From contig JAFXXW010000010.1 in assembly GCA_017542055.1 (NCBI GenBank), positions 11,438 to 75,437 of the forward strand: a stretch of 64,000 nt of DNA, in the 5' to 3' direction. The position numbers and the translations under genes were made by a program. This DNA is from Kiritimatiellia bacterium (lineage in GTDB: Bacteria; Verrucomicrobiota; Kiritimatiellia; RFP12; UBA1067). Positions 30,159-64,000 of this stretch are shown here, in pieces. Positions within the stretch are counted from its first letter, which is position 1. Every line of letters begins with the position of its first letter. The notes under the pieces were generated by a model. The model made no database searches. It was not told the DNA's origin and saw only the letters and a program-made list of their open reading frames with translations.

Positions 30159-30170
30159 CCCGTTTCCCCC

Positions 30171-30232
30171 CACTTTCCGCTTGACGGGGAGGGGAGTTGG
30201 GGAGTTTTTGCACTTTCCGGTTGACGGGGAGG
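30171..30232 (+). repeat. two copies of CACTTTCCGSTTGACGGGGAGG (40-bp period), promoter 5'-half remnants
   Basis: 30171-30192 and 30211-30232. The CACTTTCCGCTTGA part is also found immediately upstream of and including the -35 of the rmuC promoter (minus strand, 48023-48007). Confidence 0.75.
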
Positions 30233-30233
30233 A

Positions 30234-30842
30234 TTGCCGCCCCAAGCGGAAATTATTTCTCCCCAACCGGCAACTATCGCCCCTAAGGGAGAGGAAAAAA
30301 GTTCCGCCCAGGAGGAAAAAAGTTCCGCCCAAACGGAAAAAAGTTCCGCCCATCAACATAAAGAACAAATCTTAGAACATAGCACCCCCACCAGTATAGA
30401 CAATTCCAGTAAAGAGGAACGGAAAGACGGGCAGGAAGGGTCGGTAAAGAGGATTAGCATAAAGGGTATTTTTGATGATGAAGACAATCAGCATCTGTCG
30501 GTAGATGTATTGGTAAGTCGAGTCTGTGCGATATGTCGCGATTTTAACGGCGCAGCCTTGCGAAATCTGCATATACCTACCGCATACCTGCCGTATGTGC
30601 GCGATGCTATCGATATGTTTGCCAAAATGCCCAAGGAATCGATAACAAATCACGCCAAGTATCTATACTCCATGTGTAAAAACGCGGCGCAAGGCAAGGC
30701 ACCGATTCCGAACGACAAGATAGTCGAAGAAGTGGGCCAGCTGGAATGCGAGCGGCAGAACAAAATCTCCCATATGCGAGCAACGGTGCTGGCGAGCCAG
30801 CTTAGCATAATTTCCGGCCATAAGTATCCGCAGAACGCCTAA
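30234..30842 (+). CDS. hypothetical protein in a low-GC islet (possible mobile-element remnant; start unclear)
   Basis: Track ORF with a TTG start. The N-terminal third coincides with the DNA tandem repeats. The C-terminal part (..ESITNHAKYLYSMCKNAA..) loosely resembles tails of plasmid/phage replication-organiser HTH proteins; that is my recollection only. Visibly lower G+C than its flanks. Confidence 0.35.
   Translation: MPPQAEIISPQPATIAPKGEEKSSAQEEKSSAQTEKSSAHQHKEQILEHSTPTSIDNSSKEERKDGQEGSVKRISIKGIFDDEDNQHLSVDVLVSRVCAICRDFNGAALRNLHIPTAYLPYVRDAIDMFAKMPKESITNHAKYLYSMCKNAAQGKAPIPNDKIVEEVGQLECERQNKISHMRATVLASQLSIISGHKYPQNA
30293..30352 (+). repeat. 3 x 21-bp direct repeat (core GGAAAAAAGTTCCGCCCA)
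   Basis: Identical 18-nt cores at 30293-30310, 30314-30331 and 30335-30352, giving a period of 21 bp (two helical turns). Confidence 0.9.
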
Positions 30843-30857
30843 GAGGGGTAGGGGCGA

Positions 30858-30944
30858 GGGGGGTGCGTACCCCCCGGGGTGTCGCCCTATAGGGCGAGGG
30901 GGTGACGCCCTATTGGGCGATAGGGGGAGGGGGTGCGCACCCCC
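30858..30944. repeat. cluster of four GC-rich palindromes (REP/BIME-like)
   Basis: GGGGGGTGCGTACCCCCC (30858-30875), CGCCCTATAGGGCG (30883-30896), CGCCCTATTGGGCG (30906-30919), GGGGGTGCGCACCCCC (30929-30944). A related GGGGGGTGCCCACCCCCC lies at 61546-61563. Confidence 0.8.
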
Positions 30945-30970
30945 CCTATGATTTAGGATTTACGATTTTA

Positions 30971-31066
30971 GATTTAGGATTGTATTGAGGGATTGTCGAT
31001 TGGACAATCGCAAATCGAAAATCCAAGATTTTGCTTGATTTTTCGGGCGGAATATGATATAATATA
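30971..31066 (+). repeat. left copy of inverted homologous block (promoter plus upstream region)
   Basis: gatttaggattgtattgagggattgtcgattgg (30971-31003) is identical to the reverse complement of 61407-61439. Homology continues through caatcgcaaatcgaaaa...tccaagatt and the promoter cassette. Confidence 0.9.
31035..31063 (+). promoter_or_regulatory. promoter cassette P3 (TTGATT-17-TATAAT)
   Basis: ttgatt tttcgggcggaatatga tataat. Palindrome CGATTGgaCAATCG at 30997-31010 upstream. Confidence 0.68.
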
Positions 31067-60426: not shown

Positions 60427-61223
60427 CCCCGCATCCTTTCGAAACCCAAGACTCCGCAATCTTTCCCCACCCAATACGAATCGCGGATGGCTTTAAAAAC
60501 GTATTCCTTGGCGCCTTTTACCGCCTCTTTCAGCGTGGCCCCGAGCGTCAGTTCCGCCGCCATCGCCGCCGCAAAGGAGCAGCCCGTACCGTGCGTGGAA
60601 ACGGGGTTTTCCAGTCTCGGCGCGCCGAATTCGCTGAGCTCTTGTCCATCGTACAGCACGTCGATCGATTCCTTCCGGTCCTCCGAGTGCCCGCCCTTCA
60701 CGATCACGCCCACGCCGTACCGGTCGTACAGCGCCCGGGCCAAGAGTCTCGCGTCGTCCTCGCCGACCCTTCCCGCCAGTTCGCGCGCCTCCAGGAGATT
60801 GGGCGTGATCACGGTCGCGAGGGGCAAAAGTTCGCGCTTCAGCACCGCGATCGCCGACTCCTCGATAAGTTTCGCGCCCGAGGTGGCGATCATCACGGGG
60901 TCGATCACCTTCTTGATTTCCGGACGGGTTTTCAGACCCTCCGCCACCGCCTCGATGAGTTCGCCCGTCGCCAGCATTCCCGTCTTCAACGCGCCGATAT
61001 CGTACACGCCCAGCACCGCCTCCATTTGCGCGCGAACGAATTCCGGCGTGACGGGATAGATGGCGCTTACGCCAAAGGGATTTTGGGCCGTCAAAGCCGC
61101 GAAAACCGTACAGCCGTGAACTCCGTACGCATGGAACGCGCGCAAGTCGGCCTGCACCCCGGCATTGCCGCCGGAGTCGCTGCCTGCTATGGTTAGCGCG
61201 CAACTCTTCCCCGCCTTTTCCAT
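60423..61223 (-). CDS. thiD: hydroxymethylpyrimidine/phosphomethylpyrimidine kinase
   Basis: LTIAGSDSGGNAGVQADL, KTGML, and GTGCSFAAA at the C-terminus. Confidence 0.93.
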   Translation of the reverse strand: MEKAGKSCALTIAGSDSGGNAGVQADLRAFHAYGVHGCTVFAALTAQNPFGVSAIYPVTPEFVRAQMEAVLGVYDIGALKTGMLATGELIEAVAEGLKTRPEIKKVIDPVMIATSGAKLIEESAIAVLKRELLPLATVITPNLLEARELAGRVGEDDARLLARALYDRYGVGVIVKGGHSEDRKESIDVLYDGQELSEFGAPRLENPVSTHGTGCSFAAAMAAELTLGATLKEAVKGAKEYVFKAIRDSYWVGKDCGVLGFERMRG

Positions 61224-61234
61224 TATTTTCTAAT

Positions 61235-61263
61235 ATTATATCATATTCCCGCCCAAAAATCAA
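61235..61263 (-). promoter_or_regulatory. promoter cassette P6 (TTGATT-17-TATAAT), ATG 11 nt after -10
   Basis: The minus strand reads ttgatt tttgggcgggaatatga tataat attagaaaata ATG(61223). Confidence 0.68.
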
Positions 61264-61270
61264 GCAGAAT

Positions 61271-61417
61271 CTTGGATTTTCGATTTATGATTTTCGATTT
61301 GCGATTGTCCAATCGACATCTTGGATTTTCGATTTATGATTTTCGATTTGCGATTGCCCAATCGACATCTTGGATTTTCGATTTATGATTTTCGATTTGC
61401 GATTGCCCAATCGACAA
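61271..61417. repeat. 3 x 49-bp tandem repeat, each unit carrying palindrome CGATTG-NN-CAATCG
   Basis: Units at 61271-61319, 61320-61368 and 61369-61417 (cttggattttcgatttatgattttcgatttgcgattgYccaatcgaca). Palindromes at 61302-61315, 61351-61364 and 61400-61413. Confidence 0.92.
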
Positions 61418-61440
61418 TCCCTCAATACAATCCTAAATCC

Positions 61441-61477
61441 AATCGGTAAATCGATAAATCGGTAAATCGGTAAATCC
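61441..61477. repeat. 8-bp microsatellite (AATCGGTA)n
   Basis: aatcggta aatcgata aatcggta aatcggta aatcc; two further units at 61524-61542. Confidence 0.85.
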
Positions 61478-61667
61478 TACCCAAATGCAATCTTAAATCG
61501 TAAATCTAAAATCCAAAATCCCCAATCGGTAAATCGGTAAATGCCGGGGGGTGCCCACCCCCCTCGCCCATACCCCCCTTGAGCTTTTGGCAATTGGCAT
61601 ATTTGCGCTTATTATATAAGCGCTTGCAAATCTGCAAACAAAATCGCAACAATTGATAATGTATAAA

Positions 61668-62456
61668 TCATATGCGGCTTATGACTCGATTAAAAACGTC
61701 GCACCAGGCCGACTTGACGTCGAACTCGATATTGTCGCGCAATATTGGCATGGTATCAAGTTGGTAATCGCTCATCGCGAGTTTTAGCTCCATATTGGCA
61801 ACAAACTCTTTCTGGCTGGGCACGCTTCCGCACGAAGCAAGCATGAATCGTCGCCAACACTGCAACAGCCGGTCGACATCAACCTTGCCGCTATTGAGTG
61901 CGAGATGCATATCGTACAAATCCCGCCCCTTCCTGCGCTGATACATCGCCCGCAGTTTCGATCCTATAAGTTCATCCAGCCAATAGGTGTTTATGCCGCA
62001 TCCTCCCGAAAACCAACTGTTCTGAACCGAAAACGGAACTTCCACATATCCAAGTTCCGCAAAATGCTCGCTGGTGTTGACCTCTAGTTTTATGCGCATG
62101 GACTCCACCGGCATTATTTCGCTCTCGTAACGGAATTTCATCCGAAAGCCAAACCGGCGCTGCTCGAAAGTCTTGCCCGGCAACCACGACAACACTTCAT
62201 CCAATCGTTCCACTATCGGCTTTATCGCTCCCGCCTTGACCTGCACGAGATCAATATCTTCCGAATAGCGAGACTGCGGGCTCAAGTACAATTTATGTAG
62301 CGCCGTTCCGCCCCTGAACGCAAGATTCTCCCGCAGAAAATCGTCGGAAAAGATGGCCACGAGCGCCCGGCAGATAACCAGATCCTGCTCCACGAAACTC
62401 TTGCGCGACCAAGGATGCCCGGCGCTCCACTCGTTTATGCTATTGGCGCTGATCAT
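61668..62456 (-). CDS. abiEii: AbiEii/AbiGii-family nucleotidyltransferase toxin (type IV TA)
   Basis: LAFRGGTALHKLYL...RYSEDIDL, the DUF1814 nucleotidyltransferase signature. ATGA overlap with the upstream antitoxin gene. Confidence 0.88.
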   Translation of the reverse strand: MISANSINEWSAGHPWSRKSFVEQDLVICRALVAIFSDDFLRENLAFRGGTALHKLYLSPQSRYSEDIDLVQVKAGAIKPIVERLDEVLSWLPGKTFEQRRFGFRMKFRYESEIMPVESMRIKLEVNTSEHFAELGYVEVPFSVQNSWFSGGCGINTYWLDELIGSKLRAMYQRRKGRDLYDMHLALNSGKVDVDRLLQCWRRFMLASCGSVPSQKEFVANMELKLAMSDYQLDTMPILRDNIEFDVKSAWCDVFNRVISRI

Positions 62457-63286
62457 ACGTCCTCCACCTCTACTTCCACATTCGGCATTATCTTCCAGCG
62501 GTTGCTGCCGGAATCAAGCGTGTTCGCCGGGGAATGCTGATCAAGCAAGCGAACCGTCATTCGTCGACCGCACCCCTTCAACCCTTCGTACAACATATCG
62601 GCAAGCCGCTTGTCCTCCAGCGGATACTCCAACAAATATCCCAGCCGCTGCGCATCGACGATGCCGATCTTGCGCAACAATTCCGGACTCTGATTGAAAT
62701 CCAATTGCTCCTTCAATTCCGCAATCACCGTGGCAACATTCGAGAGCCCCCCGCAAATCGAATGGAAGCGCACCAGATCGAATGCGGTCAGCGCGGCATT
62801 CGAGAACCTGATCGTGCCGCCCTCGCCATTGCGCACAAATGTGGCGCTGTCGATAATTTCGCTTCGATACGCAAACTCCAAGGCGGCCTTCTTCAGTCTC
62901 GGCAAATGCAGTCTGGCGCCCGATGCCACCACATAGTCGCGCATCGCTCGCTGATGTCCCGCGCCCAAAACCGAGGCGGCGCTCAATAGTCCCACATAAT
63001 AAGGTCGCTTCAAATACTTCATCAGCTCGTCAATATAGAAAAATGGCGGAACCTTGCCATGCAACTTGTACGCCACCGGAATCTTCACGTAAAAACCGTT
63101 GCAGGGCGAAAAAACCTCCCCAGCCAACACCAAGCGCTTGATAGCAGTGGCTATATGTCCATTCTTGGCATCTGGAAATGCCTGCTTCAACTCAATGAGT
63201 GTGGTCATCGACCGACCCTTGAGTTCTTGATCGATAATATAATCTGCTACTGTCATTGCATTTCTGTTGTCATTAATGGTCGCCAC
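62453..63286 (-). CDS. abiEi: AbiEi-family antitoxin / transcriptional regulator (type IV TA)
   Basis: N-terminal wHTH-like region and the conserved RPYYVGLLSAASVLGAGHQ block typical of AbiEi. GTG start at 63286; alternative ATG at 63256. Confidence 0.84.
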   Translation of the reverse strand: MATINDNRNAMTVADYIIDQELKGRSMTTLIELKQAFPDAKNGHIATAIKRLVLAGEVFSPCNGFYVKIPVAYKLHGKVPPFFYIDELMKYLKRPYYVGLLSAASVLGAGHQRAMRDYVVASGARLHLPRLKKAALEFAYRSEIIDSATFVRNGEGGTIRFSNAALTAFDLVRFHSICGGLSNVATVIAELKEQLDFNQSPELLRKIGIVDAQRLGYLLEYPLEDKRLADMLYEGLKGCGRRMTVRLLDQHSPANTLDSGSNRWKIMPNVEVEVEDV

Positions 63287-63314
63287 CTGTCCATTTCTGA
63301 TTAGGTTTGTGCAT

Positions 63315-63344
63315 ATTATATCATATTCCAGCCCGAAAAGTCAA
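63315..63344 (-). promoter_or_regulatory. promoter cassette P7 (TTGACT-18-TATAAT) for abiEi-abiEii
   Basis: The minus strand reads ttgact tttcgggctggaatatga tataat. Confidence 0.62.
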
Positions 63345-63366
63345 GCGTTTTCTTGCCTAATTTGTT

Positions 63367-63518
63367 TCGCAAAGTCCCTGAAAACCTCTCGCAAAGTCCC
63401 CAAGAATGCTCCGCAAAGCCGCCCGCCACGCTCCGCGGTGAGGGACTTTGGTCTCCACGGAGAGGGACTTTACTCTCCGCGGTGAGGGACTTTGGTCTCC
63501 GCGGTGAGCCGCACCTTT
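63367..63518. repeat. seven 22-bp tandem units in two inverted sub-arrays (iteron-like / operator array)
   Basis: TCGCAAAGTCCC cores at 63367 and 63389, with a degenerate copy at 63411. Then CTCCGCGGTGAGGGACTTTGGT-type units at 63431, 63453, 63475 and 63497. AAAGTCCCT and AGGGACTTT are reverse complements. Confidence 0.88.
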
Positions 63519-63561
63519 CTCCGGGCGAAGGCTTGATTCCACCGGAAGATTACACAAGGCT

Positions 63562-63802
63562 GTGCTATCTTGGAGCGTTTTTAGCCAGTTTTGACCTCAA
63601 GATAGCACAAAGCTTGTGCTATCATTGTGCTATCTTCCGAAAAGAGATAATTTAGTTTTTATTAGAGAATTTAATATATTATTATAATATATATCTATCT
63701 CTATTTTCAAGATAGCACAAAATACCTATTCCCGCACACACTGATTTTTTGGCCTTTTTTAGCCCCTATTTGCAGGTGCCTTGTGCTATCTGTGCTATCT
63801 TG
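63562..63802. repeat. seven GTGCTATCTTG-type sites flanking a ~65-bp AT-rich tract (origin/partition/operator-like)
   Basis: Forward sites at 63562, 63616 (partial), 63627, 63783 (partial) and 63792. Reverse sites CAAGATAGCAC at 63598 and 63708. GATAGCAC-aaagctt-GTGCTATC dyad at 63601-63623. AT-rich tract at 63641-63707. Confidence 0.85.
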
Positions 63803-64000
63803 ACTTCAAGCCTTCCACCAGCCACTCGTAATATAGCTGTTTCAGAAGCGAATTTAGCTTTTCGGCATATTTGCGCGCTTCTTCCTCGCTTTCGAACACA
63901 AACATGCGTTCATGCCGGTCATAGAGCGACCTTAGTAGTGTAAGGTGCTCCATCAAAGGCGCATACACTGCCGCGTGAATGTCTTTAGCCACGCGTCCGG
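63795..64000 (-). CDS. hypothetical protein, probably 5'-truncated by window edge
   Basis: Track ORF 63795..63992 (GTG). The frame stays open to nt 64000. No recognisable motif. The 3' end overlaps the last GTGCTATCTTG sites. Confidence 0.35.
   Translation of the reverse strand, partial: GRVAKDIHAAVYAPLMEHLTLLRSLYDRHERMFVFESEEEARKYAEKLNSLLKQLYYEWLVEGLKSR

Follow-up and report, generated by a model that had tools for sequence, protein, structure and literature searches.

The 22 bp repeat array at positions 63367–63518 of the window (the whole 64 kb stretch of DNA analysed, to which coordinates without a contig label refer) appears from sequence comparison to be one of two phased arrays that bracket a small integrated but integrase-less replicon of ~3–5 kb carrying a defence cargo, either AbiE or RhuM. 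Every copy of this element consisted of a left array, a helicase gene, a second gene (orf2), a candidate origin, a right array and an optional cargo, and spanned 3–5 kb. No integrase or transposase gene was found in any copy. With slightly less than even confidence, we read the array as a multi-site protein-binding element that controls or bounds the replicon and is paired with a promoter-proximal array.

Contigs that overlap or extend the window were obtained by exact-protein look-ups and one DNA-pattern match, and these metagenome contigs are labelled L002–L024. The overlapping contigs recovered through exact-protein look-ups are near-identical to the window and run on beyond nt 64000. Searches of genome contigs, of metagenome contigs (by protein) and of viral contigs returned no extension. 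Three element types are distinguished by the type of helicase, namely type A, type B (L014) and type C (L017).

The 22 bp array

The array is strictly phased at 22 bp and is made up as follows.

63431–63518, − strand: distal (origin-side) sub-array, three good 22 bp units (AAAGTCCCTCACCGCGGAGACC) and one degenerate unit (63497–63518)
63367–63430, + strand: proximal (abiE-side) sub-array, two good units in which the core is inverted (AAAGTCC at 63371 and 63393) and a degenerate unit (63411–63430)

Tandem Repeats Finder reported the repeats as 63367–63418 (period 22, 2.4 copies, 80 % matches, score 60) and 63431–63508 (period 22, 3.5 copies, 85 % matches, score 128). Together with the sequence itself, this confirmed the unit starts listed in an earlier note on this DNA, which was also right that the core of one sub-array is the reverse complement of that of the other, that 22 nt separate the array from the −35 of the abiE promoter (TTGACT at 63344–63339) and that an AT-rich tract lies ~120 bp from the array. 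The same note counted seven units in two opposed sub-arrays. Seven phased positions can be recognized by a GCGGAG-type motif, but only five units have a good AAAGTCC(C) core (two on the + strand and three on the − strand), with units 3 (63411) and 7 (63497) degenerate. Likewise, the AAAGTCC cores are inverted between the sub-arrays, but the second motif, G(C/T)GGAG, keeps the same orientation from the first unit to the seventh. Read in the direction of the helicase gene (− strand), it recurs at an exact 22 bp step at 63502, 63480, 63458, 63436 and 63414, then as GCGAGAG at 63392 and GCGAAAC at 63370, and the 22 bp phase of the distal sub-array is maintained through the proximal one. Because of this single orientation and exact step, one phased array of seven units describes the repeats as well as two opposed sub-arrays do. 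The AAAGT/ACTTT half-sites have one common dyad near 63432, and the 20 nt offset between the two sub-arrays is explained by the flip of the AAAGTCC half-site around it.

The distal cores lie on the − strand at 63443–63449, 63465–63471 and 63487–63493, and each distal unit includes the near-palindrome CTCnCCGCGGnGAG. There are four exact copies of AAAGTCCCT in the 64 kb window, all of them within the array (63371 on the + strand; 63441, 63463 and 63485 on the − strand), and a fifth copy with one mismatch is at 63393. The AAAGTCC heptamer was found 18 times in the window, where 6.5 occurrences are expected, and five of the 18 fall within a 123 bp stretch inside the array. A coding repeat was ruled out by the period, which is not a multiple of 3, and an RNA element was ruled out by Rfam, which had no match in 60500–64000 at E≤1. 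Predicted RNA folding of the two strands was not significant (z = −1.8 and −1.2).

Among the type A variants, none of 77 core positions varied, compared with 7 of 91 spacer positions. One whole 22 bp unit is absent from L004, L007–L011 and L020, a clean deletion that leaves two rather than three direct units, and the copy number of the array changes by whole units. Types B and C have CYGCGGAG units at a 22–23 bp step in the same position, without abiE. Both right arrays have three such units, the last of which is inverted in type C, and both lack the AAAGTCC core. Where the right array starts, types A and B can be aligned over 37 bp (86 % identical). On the basis of these comparisons, we consider it firmly established that the 22 bp repeats are real and constrained.

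The variability in unit number would also be seen if the array were a by-product of slippage or duplication, or belonged to a host REP-like family of extragenic repeats, with no sequence-specific role. The host intergenic DNA is rich in repeats (G-rich hairpins, GATTT-type arrays and a 49 bp unit present three times), and a different 21 bp array of A-tract/palindrome units is found upstream of thiD in L024. However, variation is seen in the spacers and not in the cores, the position is kept in three diverged element types, and there are no comparable arrays in 64 kb of host DNA save one 21 bp repeat that is maybe coding. A search of the window for a REP-like family found no AAAGT..ACTTT units outside the element. 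We therefore consider a functionless repeat improbable.

The abiE cassette and its boundary with the array

The array lies next to an abiE operon, the features of which are listed below.

61593–63369, − strand: abiE cargo cassette, between the array and a host-type intergenic cassette
61668–62456, − strand: abiEii, nucleotidyltransferase toxin (Pfam PF08843, 3.6e-33; PADLOC AbiEii, 1.8e-100)
62453–63286, − strand: abiEi, antitoxin/transcriptional regulator (Pfam PF09407, 6.9e-19; PADLOC AbiEi, 4.7e-71), with an alternative ATG start at 63256
63315–63344, − strand: abiE promoter, TTGACT (63344–63339), 18 nt, TGATATAAT (TATAAT at 63320–63315)
63300–63361, no strand assigned: candidate AbiEi operator, an inverted repeat ATTAGG (63300–63305)/CCTAAT (63356–63361) that brackets the core promoter
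63369/63370, no strand assigned: junction between replicon backbone (63370 and above) and abiE cassette (63369 and below)

L007 and L008 contain the same array in the same place without abiE, and a RhuM gene is found next to it instead. In these contigs, the helicase gene, orf2 and the intergenic DNA are ~97 % identical to the abiE-bearing version, and homology stops exactly after the last unit of the array. Across the junction, the abiE loci have ...CAGGGACTTTG|CGAAAC. The RhuM locus has ...CAGGGACTTTG|TTTGGAC, beyond which a host-type intergenic cassette and then the RhuM/PDC-S05 gene follow. The presence of the array without abiE, and the end of homology at its last unit, place the array in the backbone of the helicase replicon. 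At the level of sequence, we regard it as firmly established that the array is part of the replicon backbone and is not a feature of abiE. The abiE cassette (61593–63369) is cargo inserted beside it. The RhuM-family gene (L007 12994–14082) stands where abiE would be and matches the defence family candidate PDC-S05 (9e-130), so the position adjacent to the array behaves as a slot for defence cargo.

These observations bear directly on the proposal in the earlier note that the array is an expanded AbiEi operator, in which AbiEi would bind the opposed sub-arrays for autoregulation of abiE. Known operators of the AbiEi family (AbiEi/Rv2827c) are 23 bp inverted repeats that overlap the promoter within the toxin–antitoxin locus, and up to four are possible (PMC7319586). 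The array resembles them in having inverted repeats of ~22–23 bp near the abiE promoter, only 22 nt from its −35. However, it ends upstream of the −35 and overlaps neither the promoter nor the transcription start, the cassette boundary falls between array and promoter, and the array is not co-inherited with abiEi, as it is present without abiE not only in L007/L008 but also in types B and C (L014 and L017). A sister array is also found upstream of the helicase promoter (see below). The proposal has to be abandoned as very improbable. The ATTAGG/CCTAAT repeat inside the cassette is a better candidate, and resembles the arrangement in L021, where a locus encoding a 50 %-identical AbiEi has GATTAGGAC-N7-GTCCTGATTGG just after the −10 (L021 3674–3705). 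We suggest, with low confidence, that this repeat rather than the 22 bp array is the true AbiEi operator.

Near-identical promoters are widespread in the host, and the abiE promoter is one such copy. An identical stretch of 35 nt lies ahead of fabD in L017. In L021, the promoter of the related abiE operon is directly preceded by seven tandem 7 bp units (TAGTGCA/TAGTGCT; L021 3558–3606).

A second array at the helicase promoter

Upstream of the helicase promoter (TTGACA..TATAAT), L007, L009 and L017 contain 4–9 units of 22–23 bp. The units of this sister array are 23 bp long (AAAGTCCYGCGGGAG; in the layout, AAAGTCCYGCGGGAGATTT). The four nearest the promoter are AAAGTCC(Y)GCGGGAGATTT at a strict 23 bp step, and the last of them adjoins the −35 at a distance of 16 bp. 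The outer left units in L007 are 18 bp palindromes, AAGTCT-N6-AGACTT. The left and right arrays have AAAGTCC, the GCGG(G)AG motif and the phase in common, and a search in either orientation found no substring of at least 9 bp common to the two.

In the comparison of type A with type C, strong conservation of the DNA is confined to a 164 bp block comprising the left array and the promoter (86 % identity). The left array is thus conserved at this level between types in which the helicases are ~35 % and the orf2 products ~30 % identical.

Replication genes and the candidate origin

On the − strand, the order is a gene for a 590/598 aa protein, a gene for a 178 aa protein (orf2; stop codon at 63795–63797), the intergenic region and then abiE. 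The helicase gene lies beyond nt 64000, upstream of orf2. The features of this region that fall within the window are as follows.

63795–64000, − strand: orf2, 3′ part, orphan 178 aa all-helical protein; the stop codon lies within the first TGTGCTATC box
63547–63802, no strand assigned: probable replication origin, seven exact TGTGCTATC boxes and one degenerate box (63547) around an AT-rich tract

The large protein matches PHROG 3022 (‘DNA primase’; 3.7e-52) over its helicase part, its relatives carry DUF3987, and it is 23–29 % identical to phage replicative primase/helicases (tblastn). Its AF2 model (pLDDT 78) matches MCM and DnaB chains and winged-helix proteins in Foldseek. From these matches and the model, we predict that the 590 aa protein is a DUF3987/MCM-like helicase with a DnaB_N-like N-terminus, an AAA+/MCM-like core and a C-terminal winged helix. 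The predicted structure of residues ~517–590 is a helix–strand winged-helix fold, a feature of SaPI/P4-type replication proteins. PADLOC did not match the helicase to a defence protein. For the orf2 product, there was no match in Pfam, PHROG, NCBIfam, PADLOC or the PDB and no homologue among 1.84 billion representatives, and its AF2 model (pLDDT 47) is unreliable. The corresponding protein clusters include NCBI sequences of a Kiritimatiellae MAG, with the locus tags IKP97_02440 and IKP97_02450.

Relative to type A, the helicases of L014 and L017 are ~45 % and ~35 % identical, respectively. The N-terminal module (~140 aa, DnaB_N-like) recombines independently of the remainder: the L006 helicase differs only in this part and the L014 helicase is conserved only there. 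The source contig of the window and L002 (helicase part L002 1–1413) both break at helicase residue 121, which suggests that several variants coexist in one sample. Protein P0126, from a 7.5 kb Logan contig, is a 218 aa chimera of 39 unrelated N-terminal residues and the last ~180 residues of the helicase, indicating that a copy of the element has been truncated or rearranged.

The exact TGTGCTATC boxes are at 63561, 63615, 63626, 63782 and 63791 on the + strand and at 63601 and 63711 on the − strand, and no others were found in the 64 kb window. The AT-rich tract (~63640–63710) reaches 92 % A+T over 40 nt from 63647. The 9 bp boxes lie between this tract and the 22 bp array, which are ~120 bp apart. 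A promoter-like sequence (TTGAAA, 18 nt, TATAAT; 11/12 matches) lies inside the AT-rich tract at 63681–63710 on the − strand, pointing towards the array and abiE.

The boxes change with the helicase type, from TGTGCTATC in type A to TCTACAGT in type B and GAATGCACA in type C, while their layout is kept. No such covariation with the replication proteins is seen for the 22 bp motif. Relatives of the helicase in viral contigs, 786 aa primase-helicases, have short boxes and an AT-rich tract right 3′ of the gene, and no 22 bp arrays were found at these loci. In SaPIs, Rep has a winged helix and the origin consists of 6–12 short iterons, in opposite orientations around an AT-rich centre, directly 3′ of rep (PMC9371898). 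The TGTGCTATC boxes likewise flank an AT-rich centre in both orientations, 3′ of the helicase gene. Given this SaPI-like architecture and the tracking of helicase type by the boxes, the TGTGCTATC cluster, and not the 22-mers, is the likelier site of an initiator-binding origin and, by sequence, the best candidate for it.

The earlier note had proposed plasmid-type iterons and an origin of an integrated element, and had recommended looking for a rep or integrase gene beyond nt 64000. A replication gene is indeed adjacent, namely that for the DUF3987/MCM-like helicase, accompanied by the orphan 178 aa gene, and the array does lie in the backbone of a replicon. However, there is no Rep_3-type initiator and no integrase gene, and it is the boxes, which the note does not mention, that covary with the helicase. 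This second proposal is therefore supported in part.

If the array were composed of classical Rep-type iterons, it would be the primary binding site of the element's own initiator, the winged helix or the orf2 product, and opening of the AT-rich tract would depend on it. Rep-dependent iterons (R6K gamma, P1, F, RK2 and pPS10) are direct tandem repeats of 17–22 bp at a ~22 bp step that adjoin an AT-rich unwinding element, and the period here is exactly 22 bp. R6K gamma has seven 22 bp iterons and an operator iteron, and P1 has the arrangement incC-repA-incA. The phase and the seven units match R6K gamma, and the layout of iterons, replication gene and iterons matches P1 and F. The AAAGTCC core, present in the right array of type A, is lost in types B and C, the proteins of which differ. 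However, searches of Pfam, NCBIfam and PHROGs found no Rep family match, and hence no adjacent initiator of the Rep_3, RepA, pi or TrfA type, at the locus. Further, the AT-rich tract is directly flanked by the 9 bp boxes, which covary fully with helicase type, and the 22-mers are 120 bp off; the GCGGAG motif and the left array are kept across types despite the divergence of the helicase and orf2 products; and the phage relatives have short boxes only. We consider primary iterons unlikely.

Genomic context and the ends of the element

The GC content of ~60 % falls to 46–55 % over 61–64 kb. An integration site of the tRNA/att kind was ruled out, as the window contains no tRNA gene and the two arrays have no att-like core of at least 9 bp in common. 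The genes that follow the element are thiD in the window, gyrB in L009, RhuM and a thioredoxin-like gene in L007, and fabD in L017, giving at least three chromosomal contexts (thiD, gyrB/thioredoxin and fabD). L007/L018 and L009 have a wider left-hand neighbourhood in common, so some of these contexts do not represent independent insertions.

Each copy is closely followed by a repeated host intergenic module, which consists of G-rich hairpins (GGGGGTGGGCACCCCC type), short repeats of the GATTT/AATCG type and then a near-identical promoter, TTGAYT..GGAATATGATATAAT. Copies of the module are found at 61235–61562 and 30843–31063 of the window (the latter without the element), at L007 12730–12990 and 14150–14345, at L009 14540–14780 and at L017 7360–7610, and precede unrelated genes (thiD, gyrB, fabD, thioredoxin-like, HMGL-like and RhuM). 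Most assemblies break within this module. An empty site at thiD was not found among the other contigs, all of which break inside the repeated promoter cassette. The module upstream of thiD includes a 49 bp unit three times (61269–61416, 98 % identity). The unit is present only once in the modules that precede gyrB (L009) and RhuM (L007), and on this comparison the triplication looks like a recent expansion.

Two further repeats were noted in the host DNA. A low-GC insert (30160–30842), between a DUF1570 gene and the second copy of the module, contains three 21 bp repeats GAAAAAAGTTCCGCCCA (30290–30352) that resemble the units at the helicase promoter and would translate as (E)EKSSAQ ×3 at the start of an orphan 202 aa ORF. 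TTCCGSTTGACGGGGAGG is found twice just upstream of them. In L024 (1–407), which has the same thiD gene but is from another sample, four 21 bp units AAAAGTSCCGGSMTTTT replace the GATTT module and abiE, and GGGACTTT/AAGTCCC motifs lie ahead of an identical thiD promoter. This may be the end of another element type.

The two arrays enclose a variable interior between conserved ends, as judged by alignment of the types. The conserved block begins with the first left unit and finishes with the last right unit, and arrays placed exactly at its edges fit a role in end recognition equally well. They would then be cis-acting end sites of a non-autonomous, integrase-less element served in trans by a helper recombinase, excisionase, terminase or transposase, comparable to arm-type/Cox-box arrays or to the 22 bp end sites of TnsB or MuA. 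The 22 bp TnsB sites of Tn7 and the MuA sites form arrays at transposon ends. As in Tn7 and Mu, several sites of ~22 bp are found at each edge, and the orientation of the outermost right units is opposite to that of the left array. An element comprising only a helicase gene, orf2 and cargo, found in at least three contexts, would also be in keeping with mobilization by others. Unlike Tn7 and Mu, however, the element lacks a transposase, a target-site duplication and a terminal inverted sequence, as no stretch of at least 9 bp is common to the arrays, and there are additional direct units in the right array. The left array varies from 4 to 9 units, making the homology boundary ragged, and abiE, although it moves with the element, is located outside the arrays. 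Some of the contexts may be rearrangements at repeated host cassettes, since L007 and L009 have the same wider left neighbourhood. Neither unit was found as an array in the phage contigs of IMG/VR, where the search for a helper phage returned only single chance matches. We regard this explanation as doubtful, although by weight it comes first among the rivals, ahead of primary iterons, functionless repeats and the AbiEi operator, in that order.

A broader form of the same idea, which we hold to be similarly doubtful, is that the arrays are recognition ends of undescribed minimal, integrase-less replicative islands (~3 kb) in Kiritimatiellia, mobilized or switched on by a host or helper-phage factor that acts in trans and reads AAAGTCC/GCGGAG. 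Such islands would consist of helicase, orphan and origin, would sit just upstream of the repeated host promoter cassette and would carry interchangeable defence cassettes (AbiE and RhuM/PDC-S05).

Proposed role of the arrays

The reading that we tentatively prefer, of the arrays as accessory control or boundary elements, takes in the whole layout, which on the − strand is left 23 bp array, helicase, orf2, candidate origin (9 bp boxes and AT-rich tract), 22 bp array and defence cargo. The helicase would load at the 9 bp boxes via its winged helix. Each 22 bp unit, equal to two helical turns, would be a site for a sequence-specific and probably dimeric DNA-binding protein, and the bound copies would be aligned on one face of the DNA. 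The 22/23 bp arrays could then serve as a platform that ties the activity of the origin to that of the helicase promoter. The second iteron set of P1 (incA) and the operator iteron of R6K are comparable. The winged helix of the helicase, which differs from type to type, is a less likely binder than a host or helper protein that all types would share, because the GCGGAG-phased motif and the left array are kept between types whose helicase and orf2 products are only distantly related. A point against the preferred reading is that the orf2 product is an orphan with a poor structure model.

The absence of AAAGTCC from the right arrays of types B and C is a further point against this reading, and implies that this part of the motif is dispensable or type-specific. 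Conservation of the arrays could also result from recombination or gene conversion rather than selection, as the helicase N-terminal module and the promoter block clearly recombine.

Comparison with known systems and significance

The arrays resemble the iterons of P1, F and R6K in their tandem repeats at a step of two helical turns (22–23 bp), in the use of both orientations, in the variable number of units and in the placement of one set at the promoter of the replication gene and a second beyond the gene, near an AT-rich region. They differ in that the replication protein here is an MCM/DUF3987-type winged-helix helicase rather than a Rep_3, RepA or pi initiator, and in that the 22-mers do not covary with it and separate 9 bp boxes lie beside the AT-rich tract.

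The likeness to SaPI and P4 origins (PMC9371898) lies in an origin immediately 3′ of the helicase gene, short opposed repeats, an AT-rich centre, a C-terminal winged helix and a small island with accessory (defence) genes. However, it holds for the TGTGCTATC boxes and not for the 22 bp array, as SaPI origins are without such phased arrays, and the element has no integrase, repressor or packaging genes and no primase domain or gene.

A literature search for DUF3987 together with iterons found no paper. The parts are familiar (a helicase origin, phased arrays and defence cargo), and we have not found the combination described.

A large repeat array beside a toxin–antitoxin promoter thus turns out not to be its operator, which corrects an attractive link. 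What the array belongs to appears to be a compact replicon of ~3–5 kb that carries anti-phage genes in an uncultured rumen/gut lineage of Kiritimatiellia, and that has two plasmid-like phased arrays in addition to a SaPI-like helicase origin, without an integrase. If the arrays are control or mobilization sites, the element would show how a minimal island can couple its replication to an outside signal, and also how defence cassettes are shuttled.
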